DNA of 64,000 bases from Polyangiales bacterium (GTDB lineage: Bacteria; Myxococcota_A; Polyangia; Polyangiales; JADJQN01): the NCBI GenBank assembly GCA_964202905.1, contig CAXNJO010000002.1:96001-160000 (forward strand). The letters run 5' to 3'. Both the position numbers and the translations under genes were made by a program. Below are positions 1 to 13,840 of the stretch, one piece after another. How positions within the stretch are numbered: the stretch's first letter is position 1; every line of letters begins with the position of its first letter. The notes beneath the pieces were generated by a model. The model was not told the DNA's origin. It saw only the letters and a list, made by a program, of their open reading frames with translations, and searched no databases.

Positions 1-393
1 GACGATGCAGGCGCCTCGACGGCCGCCGCGGGCGCGGCACTCCGGGGCCGCCGGCGCGCTCGAGGGCGCGGGCGTGACGGCTCCGCGGCGCGGGGCGCGC
101 GGGCCGCCGGGCGCGGCGCTTCGGCCACGGGCGCGCGCCTGCGGCTCGGCTGAAGAGGCCGGCCTCTCGCGCGGCGGCGGGGCCATCACGACGACCTCGA
201 ACGACTCGTCCGCCGCGAGGCGCACTGCAGGCGCGCCGCCCGTGCCGCGCAGGACCAGAAAGAGCGCCGCATGCGCGACCGCGGAGACACCGACGAACCA
301 CGCCCCGCGCGCCGCACGCGCAGCGTCGCGCGCGACCGCCGACGCGGGGCCGGACGCGAAGCGGGCGTTGTCGTTGGTGAAAGTCGTTTTCAA
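1..393 (-). CDS. TonB-like energy transducer, N-terminal part (runs off the left edge; start uncertain)
   Basis: My own minus-strand translation gives ...WFVGVSAVAHAALFLVLRG (SxxxH transmembrane anchor typical of TonB/TolA), then ESFEVVVMAPPP and a Pro/Ala-rich linker. It follows a TonB-dependent receptor. An in-frame TTG at 393 is the candidate start. Not in the supplied ORF track because it is truncated. Confidence 0.55.
   Translation of the reverse strand, partial: MKTTFTNDNARFASGPASAVARDAARAARGAWFVGVSAVAHAALFLVLRGTGGAPAVRLAADESFEVVVMAPPPRERPASSAEPQARARGRSAAPGGPRAPRRGAVTPAPSSAPAAPECRARGGRRGACIV
378..392. promoter_or_regulatory. Fur-box-like 7-1-7 inverted repeat
   Basis: TGAAAGTCGTTTTCA matches 13/15 positions of the perfect palindrome at 7285-7299. 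It lies just downstream of a minus-strand TTGACG(434-429)-N16-CATCCT(412-407) promoter-like motif. Confidence 0.6.
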
Positions 394-530
394 GAGCGTG
401 AGCCGAAGGATGCCCTCGCCGTGCGCTCCGTCAAGGGGATCAACCCCTGGAAATGCCTGCTCCCGTGCGCTCGCGCAGGGGCCGCAGGGGCCGCTTGCCG
501 ACGAGCCCGATCAACAAGCGCGGCCCGGGC

Positions 531-2991
531 TCAGAGCGTGTACGCGAAGCCGATCTGCGCCTGGAACGGCCGCACGGGACGCGCGCCGAACGGGCGCCGC
601 GAACCGACGGACTCCTGGAGCAGCACGTTCTCGAACCGCAGCGTGAGATCCGCGTGCCGGAACACGCGCACGCGCCCCGTGAGGTCGAGCAGGTACTGCG
701 CGTCGGTGCGCAGATCCGCGTCGCCCTGCCCCGCCTCCTCGCGCATCGCCGACACGACGCTCAGCGATGCCGCGGCCTGCCACGCGTCCTGCCGCTCGAC
801 GCCCGCCTGCACGCTGAGCTGGTGCTCGGGGACGTACGGCAGCGCATCCCCGAGCTCGACCGCGCCGAACTGCGGGTTCTCGCTCTCGAAGGCGGTGCGG
901 AACGACGAGCCCGTGTACGTGTACGCCGCACGCAGCGGCACCTCGACGTGCGCCCCTGCGCGCAGCGTGTGCGAGGCCGCGACCTCCGCGCCCCACACGA
1001 GGACGCGCCCGCCGTTGAACTGCCGATCGACGTCCATGCAGCCCGCGGCGAAGGAGCACTCGCCCGTGAGGTTCGAGTAGTCGTTGAAGAAGCCGATCGC
1101 CTCGAGCAACGAGCCGCGCGCCTCGTCCCGCCAGCGGACGCCGGCCTCGTAGTTGACGCTGTACTCGGGCCGGACTCGCCGCCGGCTGTCCGGGCGCGAC
1201 GGGGCTGAAGCCGCGGTTCACGCCGGCGAGGATCGAGACGTCGGCGCCGAGCGCGTACGACAGGCCGAGCCCCGGCAGCACCGCGACCTGCGTGCTGCGC
1301 GTGAAGGTCCCCGCGAGCCGCTCCCGCTCCGCGCCGTCGATGACCTCGAGCCGCGCGCCGGGCGTGACCCGCAGGCCCTTCCACTCGAGCGCCCAGCCCG
1401 CGTGCACGGCGAGCGCGAGCGCGAAGCGCCGCACGAGCGAGTAGCGCTCGGCCGCGTCGCCCGTCGGCACGAGCCGCCGCGCCTCCATCCAGTACGGCGT
1501 CACGGTCTGGTCGTAGTCGGCCTCGTCGTAGTGCAGCCGCGCGCCGAAGCGCACGTCGTGCGAGACCGACCCCGTGCGCGCCCGCACCCGGCCCAGCGAC
1601 TGCACGCCCTGCGAGACGAAGTCGCGCGCGTTGTTCGCGAGGTAGATGGCCTGCTGGGGGTCGGTGCGATCGGAGTCACTCGCGCCGGTGAGCACGTCGA
1701 ACGAGATGCGCCGCGCGCCGACGGGCGAGCGCAGCACGCCGAGGGTGTCGATGTCGTTCCCGATCCGATCGAAACGCTGCCAGGTGCGCGACATGCCGTG
1801 GCGGTAGCCCGTCGTCGTCAGCTCGAACCGATCCCCGACGAGCAGGCGGTGGACGAGCTGCACCTGCGTCCGGTTCCACGCCATGCGGTCGAGCTGCGTG
1901 GCCGCGTAACGGCGCCAGGAATCGGCGCGGAAATCCGCGTCGGAGAGGCCGAGGTACGTCTCGCTCGAGATCTCGCGCCCGTAGCCGAAGCGCACGTCGA
2001 GGCGCTGCGCGACGCGCGCGTCCTGATCGGTCTGCACGCGTCCGCGCAGCACGAACTCGGTGCGGGAGAAGCCCGTGGGATCGTCGCTCCCGTCGATGCG
2101 CTTGAAGCCCTCGCTCTGCACGTGCGCGAGCTCCGCGAGGAAACCGCCCCACGCGTTGCTCGCGCCGTAGTGCAGGTGCGCGCGGCCGTATCCGAACGTG
2201 CCCCCCGTCAGCTCGAGCGCACCCGCCGGCGCGTCGGGGATGTCGCGCGAGGTCAGGTCGAGCGCACCGCCGACGGTGTTCGGGCCGTAGAGCACGGCCG
2301 CCGGGCCCTTGAAGACCTCGACGCCGGTCATGCGCATCATCAGCGGGAAGTAGTAGGCCGCGGGCGCGCTGTACGGCGCAGGACCGAAGAGCACACCATC
2401 TTCCATGAGGGTGATTTTTTTCGAACGCTCGGCGCTGCCGCCGCGGATGCCGATGTTGGGACGCAGCCCGAAGCCGTCCTCCGTGCGCACGTAGACGCCC
2501 GGTGCCTGCGTGACGACCGTCGTCGGGTCGTCGTAACCGAAGCGGCGGAGCTGCCGCTCGTCGAGGCGCGTGACGGCGCCGCTCGTGCGGAAGCGGTCTT
2601 CGTCGTCGTACTCGATCCGCAGCCCGCGCAGCGCGAGGTCGTCGTCCGCGAGCGACGCGTCGCCCGGTGCCGGTGGCGTGGTCGCGGCGTCCTCCCCGGC
2701 CGCGCCGCCCGCGGGCGACGCGCCCCCACCGAGCAACGAACGACCGTCGTCGAAGATGTCGCCGAGGCCCTCGCCGCCGCCGGCGTCGGGCTCCGCCTCG
2801 ACCGTGCCTTCGGCGGGAGGCGCGGCCTCCGTCCCGGGTACGCCTGCGTCCGCCGGTGCGACGACCCCCGCGTCCTGCGCGCGGGCGCCGCGCGGCGCGG
2901 CGAGCAGACCGGCGAGCGCACCAACGAGCGCGAGCGCGAGGGGACGCGCGGGCCGCGGACATGAACGATCATTCAGCGACGGCGCGGTCAT
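531..2991 (-). CDS. TonB-dependent receptor, FecA-like Fe(III) uptake family (one frameshift near 1180)
   Basis: Signal peptide ending ARA-Q. Plug motifs PGVYVRTEDGFGLRPNIGIRG, KITLMEDG and VEVFKGPAAVLYGPNTVGG. The C-terminus ...FQAQIGFAYTL lies in a second frame (ORF 531..1109). The ATG at 2991 overlaps the upstream stop codon. Confidence 0.93.
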
Positions 2992-4488
2992 TCGCGTTCT
3001 CCGAGGGCGACGGGGATGGACGTCAGGGTGGACGGGGGCGCCGCGCGCAGGCCGCGCGGACGCCGGAGCCGGATGGGGGGATCGGGCGGCGCCGGGAGGA
3101 TCCACGACGCGGGCGCGAGGGAGTCCTCGACGCGCGTGAGATCGACGTCCGGGTCGATGAGGCGCGCCGCGGCACGGCCGTTGAGCGACGCGAGCGCATC
3201 CGCCCGCACCTCGACGTCACGGTGCCCCGCCGCGCGCAGCTCGGTCGCGACGTGGTGCGCGAGCTGCAAGACGAGGTCGGGCTGCGTGCCCATCTCGCGC
3301 TCCTGCGCGCTCGTCAGGTACCGCCGCGGCGACACGATGCGCTCGCGCGCGTCGCCGTCCATGCGCACGCGGAACGACACGCTGCCGTTCTTCTCGCGCA
3401 CCATCACGCGCCACGACCAGCGCATGCCCTGCTCGTGCCAGAGCACGTCGCCGCCGTAGAGCGTGCTCCGCAGCGGCAGCGCGACCTGCACAACGCAGTA
3501 CGCCGCGAGCAGCCCCTGCGCCGCCGCGCGCAGCGCCGGATGCGCGAGCGGCGACACCCCGGGGCCGCGCACGTCGAAGGCGTCGAGCGCGCGCGGCGCG
3601 AGGCGCTGCAACCACCGGCGGGGCCACGAGGGCTCGAAGAACACGCTCGCGGCGACGACCATGATCAGCGGGAACATCCCTATCTGGAAGAGCACGCCGA
3701 CCGCTCCGTGGAAGAGCAGCGCCGCGAGGTACGCGAGGCCGCGCGTGCGACGGATCGAGAGCCACAGCGGCAGCGTGAGGTCGTAGAAAAAGCCGCCCCA
3801 GCTCATCGCGAGCGCGACGGCCGGCACGTCGAGCCACGCCCCCACGAGCGGCAGATCCGTGCGCGCCGCGAGCCAGATGCCGAGCGGCTGGCCGTGGATC
3901 AACCAGTCGGGCTGGAGCTTCGCGAGTCCCGCGCCGACGTAGACGACGCCGACCTGGAAGCGCAGCAGCCACAGCATCCACCGTGGGAACGACGCGACGC
4001 GCAGCGCGGGCCGCAGCCCGCGCATCGAGCGAGCCCGCGCGGTGCAGCGGCAGCACGGTGAGCAGCAACGCGAGCAGGCTGACGAGGTAGTAGTGGTTGA
4101 GGTAGTTCGTGACGTCGACGAGCTCGAGATACGTAAAAAGCAGGAAATACAGCGGCGCGGCGAGCCGGTACGCGAAGCCCAGCGCGACGCAGGCAGCGAG
4201 CACGGCGAGCACGACGAAGGCCGTCGTCGTCCACGGCTCGGGCAGCGCCTGCACCCAGCCGAACCCGAAGTAGCGGAAATGGAAGGTCGGCTCGACGTAC
4301 ATGCGCGCGACCCAGCCGCTCGCGAGAAAGCGCACCGCCGCGACGACCCCGAGTACGCCGAACATCACGCGGAAGGCGACGAGCGACGCCGGATCGATCG
4401 GCGTCGCGGCGTGCGTCGCGAGCGCGCGCCACCGCGCGCCCCACGGGCCCGTCGTCTCGCTGCGCGGCGCTCCGACGCTCGTCCGCAT
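2988..4488 (-). CDS. HTTM-domain protein, vitamin K-dependent gamma-glutamyl carboxylase-like (frameshift near 4025)
   Basis: Motifs SLVAFRVMFG, FHFRYFGFGWV, YLNHYYL, RFQVGVVYVGAGLAKLQPDW, IGMFP, RWSWRVM, QPDLVLQLA and SLNGR..RLIDPDVDL, split across ORFs 3217..4488 and 2988..4025. Confidence 0.92.
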
Positions 4489-4500
4489 CGCGACCGCGCG

Positions 4501-5727
4501 TCAGTCGTTGTCGGCGTCGAGCCGGTTCGGCAGCTCGAGGTCGAGCACCGTGAGGAACTGCGTCTTCTGCGCGTCCGTGAGCGCCTTGACCGCGTCGTAC
4601 GCCGCGACGAAGGCCGCCTGCCCCGCCGCGTTGCCGGGCGCGAGCGCCTCGTCGAAGGTGCCCGGCACCGCGTCGACGGCCGCGAGCGCCGCGGCGAGCG
4701 CGGCGCGCATCGTGGCCGCGAGCGCGCCCGCGCCCACCTCGACGAGGAGATCGTCGAAGCCGTACGCCTCCGTGCCGGCCGGCGCGCCGAGGAAGAGCGC
4801 CTCGAAGCCGCGCAAGTTCGCGCGCACGCTCTCCTTCGACGCGTGCGCGACAGGCGCCTCGAGGAGCTCGGGACACGTCATCGCGACGCAGTCCGTCGAG
4901 AGCCCGCCCGGCGCCGCGAGCTTCATGTCCTTCACGGCCTCCTCGAGGTAGAGCATCGCGTCGGACACCGCGTTGAGCCCCGCCTGACTCGAGGAGAAGA
5001 GCGCACTCGTCGTGCCCGCGCTCGAGAGCTGCGTGACGAAGCCGCCCTGCGACGGCTCCCACGCGGCGACGAGCGCATCGGCCGCTTCACGGACGAGCCG
5101 CGCAGCCTCACGCGCATACGCCGCGCGCCGCGACGCGACCTCCGCGTCCCCGAGCGCCGCCCAGCTGCCATCCGTATTGAGGGTGCTGAGCGGCGCGCAC
5201 GCGTTGCCAGCATCGGCGCGGAAGAGCAGATATTCGAGCGCGCCGAGGCCACGCGCGTTGACCGCCTCGGCCGCGAGCGCGCCGGGCGTCTCCCACACGC
5301 GCGCGACCGTCTCCTGGTCGACGCGGCACCGGTTCACGAGCGGCCACGCGTAGATCTCGTCGCGCAGGTCCAGGCCGCCCGCGACGCTGAGGTTCATCCC
5401 CGCGGGCCCGAGGCTGTGCAGCTCCGCGCGCTGCCAGACCTCGTTCGCGGCGCGCCAGGCCGCCTGCGCCGCGGCGCGCTCCGCCTCGCTACCGCTGCCC
5501 GCCCACTGCGCGCTCGCTGCCTCGAGCGCCGCGGCACGCGCCGCGAACTCGCGGTAATTCGGGAGCATGACGCGCTCGGCGAGGCCCGCGACGAGCATGC
5601 GCCGGGCTGGGTCGTCGACGGGCGCCGGAGCCGCCGAATCACACCCTGCAATCTGCACGATCGACCATGAAAACAGGCCGATCCGCGAGATCATCCGCGC
5701 GCTGCGCCAGTTCATCGCGGCGGCCAT
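4501..5727 (-). CDS. Imelysin-family (peptidase M75-like) lipoprotein
   Basis: Lipobox-like IAG-C. Motifs AAQAAWR, EIYAWP, RGLGALEYLLF and KDMKLAAP, with C-terminal LDLELPNRLDADND. Start overlaps the upstream stop (TGATG at 5729-5725). Confidence 0.88.
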   Translation of the reverse strand: MAAAMNWRSARMISRIGLFSWSIVQIAGCDSAAPAPVDDPARRMLVAGLAERVMLPNYREFAARAAALEAASAQWAGSGSEAERAAAQAAWRAANEVWQRAELHSLGPAGMNLSVAGGLDLRDEIYAWPLVNRCRVDQETVARVWETPGALAAEAVNARGLGALEYLLFRADAGNACAPLSTLNTDGSWAALGDAEVASRRAAYAREAARLVREAADALVAAWEPSQGGFVTQLSSAGTTSALFSSSQAGLNAVSDAMLYLEEAVKDMKLAAPGGLSTDCVAMTCPELLEAPVAHASKESVRANLRGFEALFLGAPAGTEAYGFDDLLVEVGAGALAATMRAALAAALAAVDAVPGTFDEALAPGNAAGQAAFVAAYDAVKALTDAQKTQFLTVLDLELPNRLDADND

Positions 5728-7237
5728 CACCAGCCTCCCGTGCCGTCGTCCGCGCCGAGATTCGCGGCGTCGAAGCCATACGCCGCGCCGAGCAGCGCGC
5801 GCGCCTCGAGGAGCTTCGTGCGATACCCGTCCCGCTCGGCGGGTGTCGCCGTCGCGAGCACGGGCGCGTCGCCGAGCAGCGTGTGCAGCTGTGCGAAGCG
5901 CGCACCGTCGAGCGGCGAGCGTGGATTGAACTGAAAGCCGAGTGCGAGGCCCTTCAGCTCCGACCAGTGCGCCGCGTGATCCGCGAAGACGTACTCCGGC
6001 GCATCGAATCGTCGCATGTCGACGAGCACCTCGTTCAGATAGTGGACGGCGCTCGCCGCGAGCGCGCGCTCCCACGCACCGACGATGCGGTCCCGCTCGA
6101 CGACGAGCGCGGCGAACTCCTCGTCCGTGAGCGTCTCGCCTGCGGCCGCGATGAGCGCGCGCCCGCGCTTGAAGGCGTCGAAGGCCTCGCCCGAGAAGTC
6201 CGTGCGCGCCGCCGTCACGCTGCCGTGATCGCGCTTGCCGGCGTACACCGCGGCGCCGCAGTTCGCCTCGCGCGTGAGGTCGATGCGCCCGTCGCCGTCC
6301 GTGTCGTGGTAGCCGGACGCATACCCCGCGCGGCCGCCCTCGCCGCCGAGTTCCTCGGCGCTGTAGTCGCCGAGGTCGTGCGCGCCGCCCCAGTAGCCGA
6401 AGCCCTCGTCCCACGCGTGCTCGAGCACCGTGTACGGCGCGTCGCCGTCGCGCGTGTTGGGTGAACGAAGCCCCTTCCCTGCGACGTCCGAGTCGAGGTA
6501 GTCGTCCGCGCCCTGCGAGAACGACACCGCGCCGAGCAACAGCTTCTGCACGAGCTCCTCGAGGTCGAGCCCGCTCTCGGTGAGGTGCGCCGGGAGCGGC
6601 GCGCCGCTCGGATCCGCAGCCGCGACGCGCTCCATGCCGTTCGCCTGCTCGACCGCCTGCGCCGCGAGCGTCGCGAAGAACGCGGTGAGCAGCCCCTCGG
6701 GGCTCGTCGTTGCGCCACCGGGCGCCGCGATCGCGGGGTCCGACCAGCCACGGAAGGCCGTGGACCAATCGACGTGATCCGTGACCGTGTCGTTGCCGGC
6801 GAGTTTGTCGCGCAGCGGCTTGTTCGGCGCGAGGTCGTTCCACGTCTCCTGGAGCGCGGGCGGCGTCGTCGCGAGCGCGAAGCGGTCGTCGCCGTTCGAG
6901 GCGCCGTCGAAGCGGTAGTAGTAGTCGAGCGTTGCGAGCACTTCGGCCTCGGTGCCCGGCGTGAAGGTGCCCGCGTCGATGCGCGCGGAGATCCCGCCGA
7001 TGAACGCGCGCGAGGTCGGCAATGAGCACCTGCCGCGCGGCCTGGCCCGCGTAATCGACGCTGCTCCGCGTCGGGCGCGAAGCGGCTCTCGAACGCGTAG
7101 CGCGTGGGCACCGTGGGCGGCCCGGCGTCCGGCGTGACCGGCGGCGCATCGCCCTCGCCGCACGCCCCGAGCACGAGCGCGCATCCGGTGAAGAAGACCA
7201 CCGGGCGAGCCATCGCGAACCGACGATGTGACTGCAT
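5727..7237 (-). CDS. DUF4856-like iron-regulated lipoprotein (frameshifts near 7020-7070)
   Basis: Lipobox LGA-C, then PTRYAFESRF, SSVDYAGQAARQVLI, LRDKLAGND, LEHAWDEGFGYWG and HWSELKG, pieced from three frames. A GGAG-rich RBS precedes ATG 7237; 7213 is an alternative start. Confidence 0.8.
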
Positions 7238-7283
7238 GCCGCCTCTCCCGGCTCCTTCCATGGGAGCCCGTCCACTATCGTTC

Positions 7284-7343
7284 CTGAAAATCATTTTCAG
7301 TAAGGGCCCTCGGAGAATTAGCGGGCGCCCCGCGGGGTGTCAA
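7284..7343 (-). promoter_or_regulatory. sigma70-type promoter with downstream Fur-box-like operator for the uptake operon
   Basis: Perfect 8-1-8 palindrome CTGAAAAT-C-ATTTTCAG at 7284-7300, resembling the 7-1-7 Fur consensus TGATAATnATTATCA. Minus strand carries TTGACA(7343-7338)-N17-TAATTC(7320-7315). Confidence 0.75.
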
Positions 7344-7440
7344 GCGCGCGCCCGCGCACGGCGCCGCTGCATGCGCCAGCGTCGTCGACGCAGTGCGTCG
7401 AAACCCATGCGAACATGGGCTCCGCGCGCTCCGCGCGGTG

Positions 7441-7468
7441 TTGCCGCCTCGGAATGCGGGCGTATGAT
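7441..7468 (+). promoter_or_regulatory. Putative sigma70 promoter of pckG
   Basis: TTGCCG-N16-TATGAT, 61 nt upstream of the ATG at 7530. Confidence 0.5.
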
Positions 7469-7529
7469 CGCGCCCACGAGCGCCCCCGGTAAGGTCCGCG
7501 CGCGGCGCTCTCCGAGGAAGGATCCCCGC

Positions 7530-9341
7530 ATGACGACGGCTCCCACGACCGCTCCCTCCCCTGCGCCTGCGACGAGCAACCAAGCCCTGCTCGACTGGGT
7601 GAGCACCACGGCGAAGCTCACGAAGCCCGACCACATCGTGTGGTGCGACGGCTCGGAGGAAGAGCGCCGCCGCCTCACGGAGCTCGCGGTGTCGACGGGG
7701 GTGCTGCGGCCCCTCGACCCGAAGAAGCGCCCCGGCTGCTTCCTCAGCTATTCGAACCCGAACGACGTCGCGCGCGTCGAGCACCTCACCTTCATTTGCA
7801 CGCCGACCAAGGCCGAGGCCGGCCCGACCAACAACTGGATGGCGCCCGCGGACGCCTACGCGAAGCTGACGCCCCTCTTCGACGGCGCGATGAAGGGCCG
7901 CACGATGTACGTGGTCCCCTACGTGATGGGGCCGCTCGGCTCGCCGTTCTCGAAGGTCGGCGTCGAGATCACCGACAGCGTCTACGTCGCGTTGAACATG
8001 CGGATCATGACCCGCATGGGCCGCGCCGCGCTCGACATGCTCGGCGAGTCCAACGACTTCAACCGCGGCCTGCACTCGACGCTCGACCTCGATCCGGAGA
8101 AGCGCTTCATCTGCCACTTCCCCGAGGACAACACGATCTGGAGCGTCGGCTCGGGCTACGGCGGGAACGTGCTGCTCGGCAAGAAGTGCCTCGCGCTCCG
8201 CATCGGCAGCTACCTCGGCAAGAAGGAGGGCTGGCTCGCCGAGCACATGCTGATCCTCGGCGTCGAGTCGCCCGAGGGCCAGGTCAGCTACGTCGCCGCC
8301 GCCTTCCCGAGCGCGTGCGGCAAGACGAACTTCGCGATGATGATCCCGCCGCGCCGCTTCGAGGGTTGGAAGATCTGGACGGTCGGCGACGACATCGCGT
8401 GGATGCGCGTCGGCGAGGACGGCCGCCTCTGGGCCGTGAACCCCGAGCACGGCTACTTCGGCGTCGCGCCAGGGACGAGCATGTCCTCCAACGCGAACGC
8501 CATGAAGACGGTCGCGAAGGACACGCTCTTCACGAACGTCGCGCTCACGAGGGACAACGACGTGTGGTGGGAGGGCGTCGACGGCGAGGTCCCCGACGAG
8601 CTCATCGACTGGAAAGGCCAGCCCTGGAAGAAGGGCTCGACCGAGAAGGCCGCGCACCCGAACTCGCGCTTCACATCCCCCATCACCAACAACCCGATGC
8701 TCTCGCGCGAGTGGGACAACCCCGCCGGCGTGCCGATCAGCGCGATCATCTTCGGCGGCCGCCGCGAGGGCACCGTGCCGCTCGTGCTGCAGAGCTTCAA
8801 CTGGGTGCACGGCGTCTACCTCGGCGCGACGCTCGGCTCGGAGACGACCGCGGCCGCGACGGGCAAAGTCGGCGTGCTCCGCCGCGACCCGATGGCGATG
8901 TTGCCGTTCTGTGGCTACGACATGGGCACGTACTTCGGCCACTGGCTCGCGATGCGGCACCGCATCCAGAACCCGCCGAAGATCTTCCTCGTCAACTGGT
9001 TCCGCAAGGACGAAGACGGCAAGTTCGTCTGGCCGGGCTTCGGCGAGAACATGCGCGTCCTCAAGTGGATCGTCGACCGCGCGCGCGTGCGCATCGGCGG
9101 ACTCGAGACGCCGGTCGGCTGGATCCCGCGGCAGGGCGACGTCGACCTCTCCGGGCTCGACATCTCCGCGGAGCGCTTCGAGCTCGCGACGCGCGTCTCG
9201 CCGAAGGAGTGGATGGCCGAGCTCGACAACCACGGCGCGTGGTTCGACTCGCTCGGGCCCACCGTGCCCGACGCGCTCCGCAAGCAGCGCGAGTTGTTGA
9301 TGGCGGCGATGGCGACGCACCCGGACGTCGCGGGCGCCTGA
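7530..9341 (+). CDS. pckG: Phosphoenolpyruvate carboxykinase (GTP)
   Basis: Motifs DVARVE, GSGYGGN..LGKKC, AAFPSACGKTN, VGDDIAWM, AHPNSRF and FLVNWFRKD. RBS GAGGAAGGA precedes the ATG at 7530. Confidence 0.97.
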   Translation: MTTAPTTAPSPAPATSNQALLDWVSTTAKLTKPDHIVWCDGSEEERRRLTELAVSTGVLRPLDPKKRPGCFLSYSNPNDVARVEHLTFICTPTKAEAGPTNNWMAPADAYAKLTPLFDGAMKGRTMYVVPYVMGPLGSPFSKVGVEITDSVYVALNMRIMTRMGRAALDMLGESNDFNRGLHSTLDLDPEKRFICHFPEDNTIWSVGSGYGGNVLLGKKCLALRIGSYLGKKEGWLAEHMLILGVESPEGQVSYVAAAFPSACGKTNFAMMIPPRRFEGWKIWTVGDDIAWMRVGEDGRLWAVNPEHGYFGVAPGTSMSSNANAMKTVAKDTLFTNVALTRDNDVWWEGVDGEVPDELIDWKGQPWKKGSTEKAAHPNSRFTSPITNNPMLSREWDNPAGVPISAIIFGGRREGTVPLVLQSFNWVHGVYLGATLGSETTAAATGKVGVLRRDPMAMLPFCGYDMGTYFGHWLAMRHRIQNPPKIFLVNWFRKDEDGKFVWPGFGENMRVLKWIVDRARVRIGGLETPVGWIPRQGDVDLSGLDISAERFELATRVSPKEWMAELDNHGAWFDSLGPTVPDALRKQRELLMAAMATHPDVAGA

Positions 9342-11214: not shown

Positions 11215-12561
11215 TCAGGGGCGTGCCGGTGCGCGGCGCGCGATCCCCCGCTCCACCTGCCTCAGCAGCCAGGGTACGCACGCCGCGAGGAAGATCGACG
11301 TCCCGGCGACGCGCGGCATCCCCACGAGCATCCCGTCGGGGCCGTCGCGCAGCAGGAGTGACGAGAGCAGCGCCCCGGCCGCCGACGCGAAATGCTGCAC
11401 GGCCGACTGCAGGCTCATGAAGGCGGCGCGCTGCTGCGGACGCGGCACCTTGGTCATGGTCGCGCCCTGCGCGACGTTGCGGATCGACATCGAGAACATG
11501 AAGCCGACGAAGAGCACGACCATCGGGGCGAGCGCCGCGAGCGGCAGCGACGCCCCCCCGACGCGCACGGTGATGTCGAACGGTCCCCCCGCGGCCGCGT
11601 GCACGAGCGCCGCGGTGTCCGCGCGGTCGTAGACCACGAAACCGAACCAGATGACGCTGCAGAGCACGAGCGTTCCGACGACCGACACCGGGAACGCGCC
11701 CAGCCGATCGACGATGCGCCCGGCGCGCCGGATCGTGAAGATCGTGACGAGCCCGCCCGCGAAGTAGAGCAGCTTCAGCATCGCCTTCGGGAACTCGAGG
11801 TTCGCGTCGAGGTACCCGGCGATGGTCGGGATGAGCGCGAAGCTGCCCATCATCACGAGCGCCGTCGTCGAGAGCGCGAGCCACGCGAGCCGATCGCCGA
11901 AGAGCGCCCCGAGCCCGCCGAGGCGCGGTGTCGGCGCGCCCGCGAGGATGTGGCCGCGCAGCGACGGGAGGCGGAGGTGCGTGTACCCGAACGCCAGCAC
12001 GCCGAGCGCCGCGACCCCGAAGAAGGGCGCGCGCCATCCGCCGAGGTCCGCGAGCGTCAGGCCGAACGGGACCCCGAGCACGGAGGCCACCGAGAAGGCG
12101 GTCATCACGGTGCCGAGGGCGCGGCCACGGCGCTCGGGCGGCACGATGTCGGCCACGATCGCGAGCGCGACCGAGGTCGCGGGCCCCCCGAAGAGCCCTG
12201 CGAGCACGCGTGCGAGCAGGAGCGTCGGCAGATCGACCGCGAAGCCGCCGAGCGCCGTCGCGGCGGTGAGCCCGAGCATCGACACCAGCAGCGCGCGCCG
12301 ACGGTCGAAGCGGTCGAGGAAGAGCGCGCCGACGAGCCCGCTCAACCCCGCGGCCGCGGTGTACGCCGTGCCGACGTAACCGACCTCGGACCGCGGGAAG
12401 TGAAGCGCCTCCGCGAAGTACGGCCCGAGCGGCATCACCATCATGAAATCGAGGATGTTGACGAGCTGCACGAGCGCGACGAGCAGGACGACGCGCTGCT
12501 CGTCTGGTCCGGGCAGCCGCGGAACGGGCGCTGCGCTGCCCGAGCGATCCGGATCGTTCAT
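11215..12561 (-). CDS. MFS transporter (DHA1-like efflux)
   Basis: About 12 hydrophobic segments, motif A (LDRFDRRR), NILDFMMVMPLGP and DIVPPERRGRALG. Confidence 0.92.
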   Translation of the reverse strand: MNDPDRSGSAAPVPRLPGPDEQRVVLLVALVQLVNILDFMMVMPLGPYFAEALHFPRSEVGYVGTAYTAAAGLSGLVGALFLDRFDRRRALLVSMLGLTAATALGGFAVDLPTLLLARVLAGLFGGPATSVALAIVADIVPPERRGRALGTVMTAFSVASVLGVPFGLTLADLGGWRAPFFGVAALGVLAFGYTHLRLPSLRGHILAGAPTPRLGGLGALFGDRLAWLALSTTALVMMGSFALIPTIAGYLDANLEFPKAMLKLLYFAGGLVTIFTIRRAGRIVDRLGAFPVSVVGTLVLCSVIWFGFVVYDRADTAALVHAAAGGPFDITVRVGGASLPLAALAPMVVLFVGFMFSMSIRNVAQGATMTKVPRPQQRAAFMSLQSAVQHFASAAGALLSSLLLRDGPDGMLVGMPRVAGTSIFLAACVPWLLRQVERGIARRAPARP

Positions 12562-12637
12562 CGACGCACCGTAGACGTCGCCCGGCCCCCTGAGAAGCAC
12601 CGCGCGCGGCGGCGCGGGGCTGCTACGCTCGGCGCGC

Positions 12638-13840
12638 ATGTCGGCACGCCCCCACGCGCTCGGGCTCCGCGCGAGCGACGCCGACGAGCCCGCGACCGCG
12701 GACGATTGGCGCTGGCAGGTTCGCCACGCGGTCACGGATCTGGCCGGTCTCGAGGCGCGCCTGCACCTCACCGAACGCGAGCGCGAGGGCGTGCGCCGCG
12801 CGTTGGCGGACGGCTTCCCGATGTCGATCACGCCGCACTATCTGGGGCTCTGCGACCCTCACGATCCCGCGTGTCCCGTGCGCGTGCAGTGCGTGCCCGT
12901 CGCCGACGAGGCCCGCAGCGTGCCCGGCGATCTGCGCGATCCGCTTGGCGAGGAGGCGCACGAGGTCGCGCCACATCTCGTGCAGCGCTATCCAGACCGC
13001 GCGCTGCTTCTCGCGACCGATCGCTGCAGCGTCTATTGCCGTTTCTGCACGCGCTCGCGCATGGTCGGCGCGGGCGGCGGCGCCCGCAGCATGGAGCGGC
13101 TCGCGCCCGCGTTCGCCTGGCTGCGCGCGCACCCCGAGGTGCGCGACGTCATCGTCTCCGGCGGTGATCCGCTGGTGATGCGCACCGAGCGCCTCGCCGA
13201 GATCCTCGGCGCGCTCGCGGCGATCGAGAGCCTCGACACGGTGCGCGTCGCGACCCGCGCGCCGGTCACGCTCCCACAGCGCATCACGGGCGAGCTCTGC
13301 GCGGCGCTCCGCACGCACCCGGCGGTGTGGCTCATGACGCACTTCAACCACCCGAAGGAGCTCGCCCCCGCGGCCCTCCGCGCGTGCGGGCGGCTCATCG
13401 ACGCGGGCATCCCCGTGATGAACCAGACGGTGCTGCTCCGCGGCGTGAACGACGACGCCGACGTGCTCGAGCGGCTCTTTCGCGGGCTCGTCCGCACGCG
13501 CGTTCGGCCCTACTACCTACTCCAGGCCGACCCGGTGCGCGGCACCGGGCACCTGCGGACGCCGATCGCGACGGGCCTCGCGATCATGGAGCGCCTGCAG
13601 GGCCGGCTCACGGGGATCGCGGTGCCGAAGTTCATCGTCGACACGCCGGGCGGCCGCGGGAAGGTCCCGCTCCTGCCCGACTACGTCGCGGCGCGCGGCG
13701 CGGGGACGACGACGCTCCGCACCTTCCGCGGCGAGCTCGTCGACTACATCGATCCGCCCTCCCCGTGCGCACCCTCCGCGCCGGTCGACGACGCACGAAC
13801 CCCCGACGCGAACGGGCAAAACGCCGCGACGAACGCGTGA
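12638..13840 (+). CDS. KamA-family radical SAM/PLP aminomutase (lysine 2,3-aminomutase-like)
   Basis: DWRWQ, DPLGEE, QRYPDR, CSVYCRFCTR, SGGDPL, THFNHPKE, NQTVLLRGVND and PGGRGKV (PLP lysine). Confidence 0.92.
   Translation: MSARPHALGLRASDADEPATADDWRWQVRHAVTDLAGLEARLHLTEREREGVRRALADGFPMSITPHYLGLCDPHDPACPVRVQCVPVADEARSVPGDLRDPLGEEAHEVAPHLVQRYPDRALLLATDRCSVYCRFCTRSRMVGAGGGARSMERLAPAFAWLRAHPEVRDVIVSGGDPLVMRTERLAEILGALAAIESLDTVRVATRAPVTLPQRITGELCAALRTHPAVWLMTHFNHPKELAPAALRACGRLIDAGIPVMNQTVLLRGVNDDADVLERLFRGLVRTRVRPYYLLQADPVRGTGHLRTPIATGLAIMERLQGRLTGIAVPKFIVDTPGGRGKVPLLPDYVAARGAGTTTLRTFRGELVDYIDPPSPCAPSAPVDDARTPDANGQNAATNA

Follow-up and report, generated by a model that had tools for sequence, protein, structure and literature searches.

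A likely Fur-repressed iron-uptake cassette was found on the minus strand of the 64,000-nucleotide stretch of Polyangiales bacterium DNA analysed here (the window), and in our tentative reading, which falls a little short of an even chance, its GGCX-like HTTM membrane enzyme would bind the co-encoded imelysin lipoprotein and carboxylate an Asp of the imelysin tail, giving a malonate-type iron-binding end. A Pfam search of the window identified a DUF4856 lipoprotein, an imelysin, the HTTM enzyme, and a TonB-dependent receptor (Table 1), and these genes were joined by TGATG at 5727, a 12-nt gap at 4489-4500, and ATGA at 2988-2991, in agreement with the four tightly coupled genes of the preliminary description. 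The TonB-like gene called there was also confirmed: TonB_C (PF03544, E 6e-17) was located just outside the window (G000:C2:95528-95806), in a different frame from the tonB 5' part. The receptor had been called FecA-like, which held for the plug but not for FecA identity: its intact homologue from locus L059 scored 58.8 bits, in the plug only, against a cut-off of 1100 for the FecA equivalog NF041676. The HTTM gene was present as one copy in this genome (genome-wide family search with PF22777).

Table 1. Features of the cassette, in window positions
Feature	Positions	Strand	Basis
DUF4856 lipoprotein, all-helical	5727..7237	-	Pfam PF16148, E 5e-10
Imelysin-like lipoprotein, IPPA/PA4372 (GxxxxE) family, intact	4501..5727	-	PF09375, E 2e-34
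GxxxxE motif of imelysin, without the His of GxHxxE imelysins	5233..5250	-	alignment columns; family definition PMC3143127
C-terminal Asp-Asn-Asp of imelysin, candidate modification site and candidate metal ligand	4504..4512	-	
GGCX/VKGC-like HTTM membrane enzyme, transmembrane domain and clamp A	2988..4488	-	PF05090 + PF22777
Asn-His, equivalents of GGCX N159/H160	4093..4098	-	ungapped alignment to GGCX
Lys, equivalent of GGCX catalytic base K218	3918..3920	-	alignment to GGCX
TonB-dependent receptor, cassette-specific subfamily	531..2991	-	plug and barrel Pfam domains
Perfect 7-1-7 Fur-like palindrome upstream of DUF4856 gene	7285..7299	.	sole exact TGAAAAnnnTTTTCA match in genome
Second Fur-like box, at tonB gene start	378..392	.	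one mismatch; genome's second-best site
tonB 5' part: membrane anchor, Pro/Ala-rich linker; start codon uncertain	1..393	-	translation and frame plot

The DUF4856, HTTM, and receptor genes each contained one frameshift that the preliminary description had left unmentioned (near 7063, 4015, and 1175, respectively), and tonB also switched frame. The three tested breaks were most likely assembly errors, because the extra base was missing from short-read contigs, which were one base shorter at 1174/1176 (two runs), 4015/4017 (two runs), and 7063 (one run); run-X3 contigs across 4015 and 7063 were otherwise identical to the window. Real frameshifts in a locus decaying in this strain, a matter independent of the mechanism, would fit the frame changes in four of the five cassette genes versus one among 33 genes tested in the rest of the genome, but are very unlikely in view of these contigs. 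Short-read contigs can err too, as seen from single-contig indels at 1323 and 6477.

The HTTM enzyme (about 455 residues) matched human GGCX at residues 47-174 and 191-508 and contained PF05090 plus the VKGC lumenal domain PF22777. It shared with human GGCX (PDB 9bvk, 9l6r, 9wf3, and others) the fold of the transmembrane domain and clamp A: against the model of a homologue (pLDDT 95), the 14 best GGCX chains gave TM scores of 0.79-0.84 (0.54-0.59 when target-normalised). The GGCX-type catalytic core was intact in an alignment of 80 homologues: (i) equivalents of N159, H160, K218, W223, H287, F294, and W399 were present in all 80; (ii) those of D263 and F299 in 79; and (iii) F286 (in at least 79), A214, and G259 were also kept. 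The GGCX homology proposed earlier was thus borne out. In GGCX, K218 is the catalytic base, N159/H160 bind the substrate carboxylate, and F286, F294, and F299 form the quinol/CO2 pocket; N159, H160, F299, D263, and W223 serve C-H activation and CO2 holding, with F299 stacking CO2. Compared to human GGCX, the cassette enzyme had no C-terminal domain and no propeptide clamp B, the match stopping at human residue 508; N158 was replaced by Leu and K217 by Ala in all 80 homologues, and the position of Y395, the dipeptide anchor whose loss impairs GGCX, was occupied in the sequence alignment by Met in 52, Tyr in 14, and Phe in 13 homologues, followed by Arg in 78. A Leptospira homologue is reportedly an epoxidase without carboxylase activity.

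The imelysin profile matched IPPA (3pf0) over almost its full length, and the lipobox Cys was found in 80/81 imelysins. Asp-x-Asp formed the exact C-terminal end in 121/127 imelysins of the IPPA type and lay within three residues of the end in 126/127; the acidic residue of this tail was Asp and never Glu, and the end was disordered in the IPPA crystal. In E. coli, Asp at lipoprotein position +2 acts as an inner-membrane retention signal; it was present in just 12/80 imelysins, so that this signal was not general. A lasting complex in the inner membrane fits this less well than a passing meeting of enzyme and substrate. The tail was also kept where this HTTM was absent, namely in 23/23 PA4372-type imelysins of Pseudomonadota (next gene DUF1513 in 11/11 tested) and in 9/9 cassettes with a gene of the di-iron fatty-acid-hydroxylase family replacing HTTM, and it therefore has a role independent of carboxylation. 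IPPA, from an HTTM-free branch of the GxxxxE family (defined against the GxHxxE imelysins in PMC3143127), bound neither ferric ion nor haem in thermofluor tests (PMC3143127).

Where 1.5 kb or more of upstream sequence was in view, an IPPA-type imelysin lay beside HTTM in 70/71 GTDB loci and 31/33 relative loci. In an unselected Bacteroidota sample, 15/18 HTTM matches adjoined one. The other partners were variable (DUF4856 in 27, DHOR in 14, and TBDR in 51 of the 71 GTDB loci), so that the neighbourhood anticipated earlier was conserved across several phyla with imelysin as its only constant member. In ten genomes HTTM was present as two paralogues, both of them in a separate cassette with an imelysin, and the paralogues grouped by cassette type rather than by genome. 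A second architecture consisted of an imelysin-DHOR-imelysin core plus HTTM; DUF4856 and ICMP-type imelysin plus DHOR never occurred together in one locus, and DUF4856 filled the slot taken in the second architecture by ICMP-type imelysin plus di-haem DHOR. The model of a DUF4856 homologue (pLDDT 78) displayed helical bundles with no clear PDB match (the best structural matches, at Z 7.5, were to helical bundles of unrelated proteins), and DUF4856 gave an hhalign probability of 1.6% against the imelysin profile.

The homologous HTTM-imelysin pair from L059 was folded as a complex by one family of structure-prediction models, with a score of 0.83 versus 0.07 for the best of three controls; the mark for this score was reached by 116/157 solved complexes and 2/215 mismatched pairs. 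The runs shared at least 63% of contacts, and the pLDDT of the partner was at least 85. The predicted interface involved enzyme residues 110-113, 248-253, 331-340, and 403-411 and imelysin residues 389-412, and both the tail (residues 406-412) and the active-site residues were inside it; conservation in the interface barely exceeded that of the remaining residues (0.61 versus 0.58). The imelysin is thus predicted to bind the enzyme with the Asp-x-Asp tail at the active-site face, and the tail is a likely candidate protein substrate, a result in favour of the earlier idea that an exported co-encoded protein is the target. The listed closest residue pairs belonged to the helix and not to the tail, whose placement in the pocket came from the residue lists. 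The prediction used a homologous pair with author-made alignments and may borrow from solved GGCX-peptide structures.

The Fur-type boxes described earlier were confirmed. The two boxes of the window were the sole sites within one mismatch of TGAAAAnnnTTTTCA (a consensus adjusted to the box of the window) in the 5.68-Mb genome, which contained two Fur-family genes, and Fur-like boxes were present upstream in 41/83 homologous loci versus about one expected by shuffling. Riemerella anatipestifer RAYM_09779-09794 had by annotation the same order (receptor, vitamin K-dependent gamma-carboxylase, imelysin, and hypothetical gene), and these genes were listed in a transcriptome table as iron-regulated, with 2.1-3.1-fold induction without iron and mild Fur repression (PMC5609570, Table 4). 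The boxes across loci and this iron-starvation induction support iron/Fur control.

In the mechanism proposed, the last helix of imelysin would dock on clamp A and the cap in place of the animal propeptide, with the tail in the predicted interface beside the N159/H160 and F299 equivalents. On the periplasmic side of the inner membrane, K218 would deprotonate a quinol, O2 would then yield a strong base, and CO2 would be added beside the Asp carboxylate, either at C-alpha of the terminal Asp as in MloH, giving a citrate-like tricarboxylate, or at C-beta. The modified lipoprotein may hold Fe(III) imported via the TonB-dependent receptor or feed Fe(III) to the receptor. The best reading is a quinol/O2-driven, MloH-like carboxylation of the tail Asp and not Gla formation. 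Linkage, catalytic set, fold, complex score, Asp-only tail, iron link, and mqnC were listed in support of carboxylation; retention of the tail without HTTM, carriers without menaquinone genes, Tyr at the Y395 position in 14/80 homologues, and the changed N158 and K217 were counted against it, together with the limits of the complex prediction, the negative thermofluor tests of IPPA, and the Leptospira epoxidase. As to the menaquinone invoked earlier, mqnC was above cut-off in this genome and indicated a synthesis route, but three carriers among the gammaproteobacteria (genomes of unstated completeness) had no menD, menB, or mqnC match above cut-off, which makes strict dependence doubtful.

Three other readings were weighed against Asp carboxylation. 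A reductive hand-off is unlikely, though the least so of the three: the unmodified tail would bring Fe(III) to HTTM, and the bound quinol would reduce it and free Fe(II) for an importer such as FeoB, with HTTM, DUF1513, and the di-iron hydroxylase-like protein interchangeable. It would account for a tail retained whichever partner gene is next and for the carriers without menaquinone gene matches; the cassette neighbours scanned contained no permease while a FeoB-like gene was present elsewhere in the genome, and the predicted complex fits equally well. The retention of all the residues for C-H activation and CO2 holding argues against it, as do the inner-membrane retention signals not being general in imelysins, and we know of no HTTM protein acting as a metal reductase. 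A different carbanion or oxygen chemistry, distinctly improbable, would have HTTM activate a C-H bond in either the tail or a small ligand for hydroxylation, epimerisation, or another reaction, the hydroxylase-family replacement making the same or a similar product such as hydroxy-aspartate, a known siderophore ligand. The O2-using di-iron enzyme stood in the place of HTTM in 9/9 cassettes that could be viewed, which were nested within the imelysin clade linked to HTTM; other HTTM proteins have an unclear part in the maturation of linaridins, and Y395 and N158 were changed; against this, CO2-stacking F299 and the bicarbonate/K218 surroundings were kept, the closest named relative of the replacement, lipid hydroxylase OlsE, was far below cut-off, and such hydroxylases usually face the cytoplasm, away from a periplasmic tail.

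The preliminary description had proposed that Glu in several exported proteins of the cassette may undergo animal-style gamma-carboxylation to give Gla-rich chelators, which now appears highly improbable. The GGCX fold and catalytic residues and the many invariant Asp and Glu of DUF4856 agree with it, but clamp B was missing, Y395 was mostly replaced, the conserved flexible acidic element and candidate site was Asp-only, and DUF4856 and the receptor were each absent from many loci. For these reasons, and with imelysin as the sole constant partner, an anti-Gla blot could miss the modification.

The cassette was also compared with known systems. P. aeruginosa PA4370-PA4373 and V. cholerae VC1264-VC1266 (PMC3143127) shared the GxxxxE imelysin, the same Asp-x-Asp end, iron/Fur control, and the lack of a permease, and PA4370-PA4373-type operons had the imelysin-DHOR-imelysin core of the second HTTM architecture; HTTM followed imelysin in the cassette while DUF1513 did so in these operons, and in the window DUF4856 replaced ICMP and DHOR, with the receptor following. 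DUF5819 + HTTM pairs (bioRxiv 10.64898/2026.08.19.745780) and the linaridin HTTM proteins LinG/CrdG shared the HTTM membrane domain with quinol pocket, but the former were split enzymes, the latter belonged to peptide-antibiotic clusters, and neither had imelysin or an iron link. MloH of malonomycin biosynthesis, the one bacterial homologue reported to carboxylate, is reported to alpha-carboxylate Asp (Law et al. 2018, as cited in other papers); by description rather than sequence comparison, it resembled the cassette enzyme in being a VKGC homologue whose membrane and lumenal parts are fused. The cassette encodes an Asp-bearing candidate substrate at the same locus as its enzyme. The MloH substrate was a polyketide-peptide intermediate in an antibiotic cluster, while the cassette candidate was the end of a ribosomally made protein from an iron cassette. 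GGCX acts on propeptide-bearing, Glu-rich Gla proteins, whereas the partner here was a folded lipoprotein with an Asp tail. No description of an HTTM-imelysin mechanism was found in the literature.

The role of bacterial VKGC homologues is a long-open question, the sole reported activity found being that of MloH on an antibiotic intermediate; the cassette narrows the question to a single protein, a site of three residues, and a mass shift of +44 Da. The near-invariant, crystallographically disordered Asp-x-Asp end points to the functional site of IPPA/PA4372 imelysins, a family with which three unrelated proteins (HTTM, DUF1513, and di-iron hydroxylase) alternate as partner. In its fullest form, which we regard as rather doubtful, the proposal is that bacteria of at least six phyla make an alpha-carboxy-Asp C terminus on an iron-regulated lipoprotein, that is, a citrate-like, protein-borne siderophore formed by post-translational CO2 fixation. 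A bacterial GGCX would thereby have its first native protein substrate, in which the last imelysin helix serves as built-in propeptide, and the reaction would be a plausible ancestral role of the enzyme used by animals for clotting. If true, carboxylation of the tail would be a new bacterial post-translational modification linked to the capture of iron, and would hint at how animal Gla chemistry arose.

The cassette of the Polyangiales genome G000 (73% GC, 94% complete, 19 contigs) comprised four genes followed by tonB, with TGATG (DUF4856/imelysin), a 12-nt gap (imelysin/HTTM), and ATGA (HTTM/receptor) as successive junctions; the four tightly coupled genes and the tonB-like gene of the preliminary description were all present, and its junctions were confirmed.

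Genes of the cassette assigned by profile annotation (window coordinates)
Gene	Coordinates	Strand
DUF4856	7237-5727	minus
Imelysin	5727-4501	minus
HTTM plus VKGC-lumenal protein	4488-2988	minus
TonB-dependent receptor	2991-531	minus
tonB	after receptor, extends past window end	minus

The receptor had been called FecA-like, and its identity as a true FecA orthologue was rejected. DUF4856 was helical, its acidic and aromatic motifs were invariant, and it had no evident structural relative; searched as a hidden imelysin, it gave no profile match, no Foldseek match at E ≤0.001, and only generic helical-bundle matches (Z up to 7.5). Upstream of the cassette lay (i) a GTP-dependent PEP carboxykinase gene (7530-9341, plus strand), divergent from the cassette with an upstream region in common, (ii) one unassigned gene, and (iii) mutually divergent genes for an MFS transporter and a lysine-2,3-aminomutase-like radical SAM protein (11215-13840).

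DUF4856, HTTM, and the receptor each contained one frame change, and tonB changed frame too. The short-read contig comparison took in the first three genes: one base was absent from the contigs at 1174/1176 (runs X1 and X3), 4015/4017 (runs X3 and X4), and 7063 (run X3), and the X3 contigs spanning 4015 and 7063 were otherwise identical to the window. The three frameshifts compared were likely assembly errors; counting against this, only 1/33 test genes elsewhere in the genome was split, and single-contig indels were observed at 1323 and 6477, where the window frame was open. All folds were made with intact homologues.

The PF22777 search gave 37 matches, including that of the window, in 25/61 genomes of the same order; among the 36 others, those with at least 1.5 kb upstream had an IPPA-type imelysin within 400 bp of HTTM in 31/33 loci. 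An HTTM-only pattern scan of GTDB gave at least 593 confirmed relatives, and the best 80 of these, a set favoring Myxococcota (to which the named records of the closest homologues belonged for the most part), also included Bacteroidota, Chloroflexota, Gemmatimonadota, Bdellovibrionota, and Gammaproteobacteria. With nine of these 80 dropped for contig ends, imelysin lay within 2.6 kb of HTTM in 70/71 loci, the receptor was found in 51/71, DUF4856 in 27/71, and the di-haem protein DHOR in 14/71, and DUF4856 and DHOR occurred together in 0/71; the linkage put forward earlier was supported, with imelysin alone as the constant partner. The same-order and GTDB sets overlapped in at least one locus, and related loci were non-independent. 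Among 101 Bacteroidota genomes evenly drawn around one chosen carrier, 17 harbored HTTM, and 15/18 HTTM matches adjoined imelysin. Cultured carriers included Pontibacter ruber (L136), Sorangium cellulosum (L105), Myxococcus qinghaiensis (L084), and Nannocystis exedens (L118).

Two architectures were recognized: (i) [DUF4856 or another lipoprotein]-imelysin-HTTM-receptor and (ii) imelysin-DHOR-imelysin-HTTM. Ten genomes carried one copy of each, with HTTMs on different tree branches; each imelysin had kept its own enzyme, which suggested that imelysin and HTTM form a dedicated pair. In the HTTM FastTree, 114/118 proteins constituted one branch (support 99), including a few without imelysin in view (e.g., L140, with full view), and four stand-alone proteins fell outside; more distant HTTM proteins were stand-alone (3/5 plasmid records). 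Several loci varied: the DUF4856 slot was filled by a DUF5122/delta-60-repeat beta-propeller protein in L036 (12315-13316), L038 (12017-13750), L041 (3877-5943), and L054 (12240-13964), and by a TSP3-repeat/VWA protein in L040; the DHOR-type HTTM cassette of L034 was followed by one TonB-dependent receptor gene and one gene for a triple-HmuY protein (4999-8666), suggestive of a haem-uptake neighbour; HTTM was convergent with imelysin-DHOR-imelysin genes in Chloroflexota loci L131, L138, and L143; and Bacteroidota locus L187 had a haem oxygenase gene (857-1453) flanked by DHOR on one side and an imelysin lacking the tail on the other. Stand-alone HTTM adjoining a DUF393 gene, annotated in L069 (7506-9374) and called from a CxxC motif in L215 (3-1762), represented a second recurring context.

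Besides the Fur-type palindrome before the operon (7285-7299) and the separate box of tonB (378-392), both noted in the preliminary description, no site in the 5.68-Mb genome came within one mismatch of TGAAAAnnnTTTTCA; because the only two strong boxes of this type both sat at the cassette locus, the cassette may serve as the chief iron-starvation unit of the organism. G000 harbored two Fur-family genes and a FeoB-like gene at C5:242628. In 41/83 loci with enough view, as against about one in base shuffles, the 6 kb preceding HTTM contained a similar pattern (Fur consensus fitted to the window's box, up to two mismatches); the sigma-70 promoter scan gave no match on the operon strand. Table 4 of PMC5609570 lists a run of four neighbouring Riemerella anatipestifer genes, with the annotations receptor, vitamin K-dependent gamma-carboxylase, imelysin, and hypothetical, as upregulated 2.1-3.1-fold in the absence of iron and 1.4-1.9-fold when fur is mutated. 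The cassette is a variant of known Fur-regulated imelysin systems; PMC4555120 and PMC9927463 served as background only. Searches of the open-access literature located the cassette only as rows of the Riemerella table, the sole match in which imelysin and vitamin K-dependent terms co-occurred; they gave no paper on the HTTM domain with imelysin, none on DUF4856, none linking imelysin, sterol desaturase, and iron, and no Leptospira paper combining carboxylase and imelysin terms, and the Zenodo models of a DUF-interaction preprint may include DUF4856 or DUF1513 pairs.

The two pieces of the window HTTM were aligned to human GGCX 47-174 and 191-508, and the fold of a homologue (pLDDT 95) matched the top 14 GGCX chains at TM 0.79-0.84, with the three-stranded clamp A of GGCX but without clamp B. 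In human numbering, N159, H160, K218, W223, F286, H287, F294, and W399 were invariant in 80/80 homologues, and D263 and F299 were kept in 79/80; R406 was Lys in 79/80, K217 was Ala and N158 was Leu in 80/80, and Y395 was Tyr in 14/80. K218 of GGCX is described as catalytic and K217 as substrate binding (bioRxiv 10.1101/2025.02.09.637231), with further residue roles taken from PMC12647623. HTTM has kept its chemistry core intact and lost the propeptide machinery. The earlier menaquinone link agreed with mqnC in G000 and found no counterpart in three gammaproteobacterial carriers, where none of menD, menB, and mqnC exceeded the cut-off, so that ubiquinol may serve there or the assemblies may be incomplete.

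The window-type imelysin had GxxxxE and a lipobox and therefore belonged to the IPPA/PA4372 family (PMC3143127). Its C-terminal end was its most conserved feature: the Asp-x-Asp tail (Asp-Asn-Asp in the window) was the exact C-terminus in 121/127 IPPA-type imelysins and lay within three residues of the end in 126/127, always with Asp; the six C-terminal residues are described as disordered in the IPPA crystal (PMC3143127). Permanent inner-membrane retention of imelysin was rejected, Asp occurring at +2 in only 12/80.

The complex of HTTM and imelysin (residues 27-412) of locus L059, modeled from 80-81-row alignments each, scored 0.83 (best control, 0.07), against a mark that was met by 116/157 solved complexes and 2/215 mismatched pairs and is roughly applicable to the authors' own alignments used here. 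Runs had at least 63% of contacts in common, with partner pLDDT of at least 85. In the homologous pair's own numbering, the closest pairs joined the last imelysin helix (389-400) to clamp A (336-340 and 403-411) and the cap (185-189); the interface also included the imelysin tail (406-412) and enzyme residues 110-113 (W157-H160 equivalents) and 248-253 (F294 and F299). The model supports a predicted binding of imelysin by HTTM and, in our reading, the tail may thread into the enzyme pocket; no tail-to-pocket pair was among the closest pairs, the predicted enzyme interface displayed no extra conservation, and solved GGCX-peptide complexes could have biased the model.

The tail was ruled out as an HTTM-specific signature by two controls: (i) 23 PA4372-type imelysins without HTTM (L155-L173 and L177-L180) from 121 Pseudomonadota genomes ended in Asp-Gly-Asp, the next gene being DUF1513, possibly another reader of the tail, in 11/11 tested; and (ii) DUF4856 was found in 10/121 genomes of one gammaproteobacterial order, 9/10 carrying DUF4856-imelysin-receptor and then a di-iron protein of the fatty-acid-hydroxylase family that has three His boxes, the tenth (G291) being excluded from the nine for a cassette cut by a contig end. 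A full-length match to the cassette HTTM profile was found in 0/9 hydroxylase genomes and 0/22 DUF1513-type genomes; G291 alone in that order had a strong HTTM match, on a separate small contig without imelysin. The membrane di-iron gene in HTTM's place (L204:12875-13861; L206-L210 and L212-L214) was weakly OlsE-like, and its kind was absent from the HTTM loci examined. In the imelysin FastTree, rooted on five tail-less imelysins, both replacement groups nested among HTTM-linked sequences (support <95 for the DUF1513 placement), which suggests that HTTM was the older partner, replaced twice. In Bacteroidota, 15 tail-bearing imelysins lay beside HTTM and five tail-less ones (two with GxHxxE) did not lie directly beside it, a coincidence confounded by family because the latter formed a separate branch.

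Gene content, linkage, boxes, residues, and tail are direct observations, binding is a prediction, and chemistry and iron handling are inferences. As to chemistry, HTTM would use quinol and O2 to add CO2 to a tail Asp of imelysin, a reading we place slightly below an even chance. MloH, the only bacterial VKGC homologue reported to carboxylate in the literature searched, alpha-carboxylates aspartate (PMC12186529, PMC12647623, and bioRxiv 10.64898/2026.08.19.745780); the L131, L138, and L143 imelysins had 1-3 extra residues past Asp-x-Asp, which would block terminal alpha-carboxylation. Animal-style Gla formation, the version of the preliminary description, appears very improbable; the catalytic Lys is kept, clamp B is not, and the conserved tail residues are Asp throughout.

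Since the tail is kept in HTTM-free systems, its function does not require carboxylation everywhere: the tail is either a metal ligand upgraded by HTTM or the bearer of a cargo on which all three partners act. Quinol-driven reductive release of tail-bound iron, in which HTTM would act on such cargo, is rather unlikely, and other C-H chemistry by HTTM, a protein with its GGCX core residues retained and a di-iron hydroxylase-family protein in its place elsewhere, is more doubtful still. With carboxylation of the tail Asp as the preferred reading, the cassette offers bacterial vitamin-K-type carboxylases a precise, testable candidate substrate.
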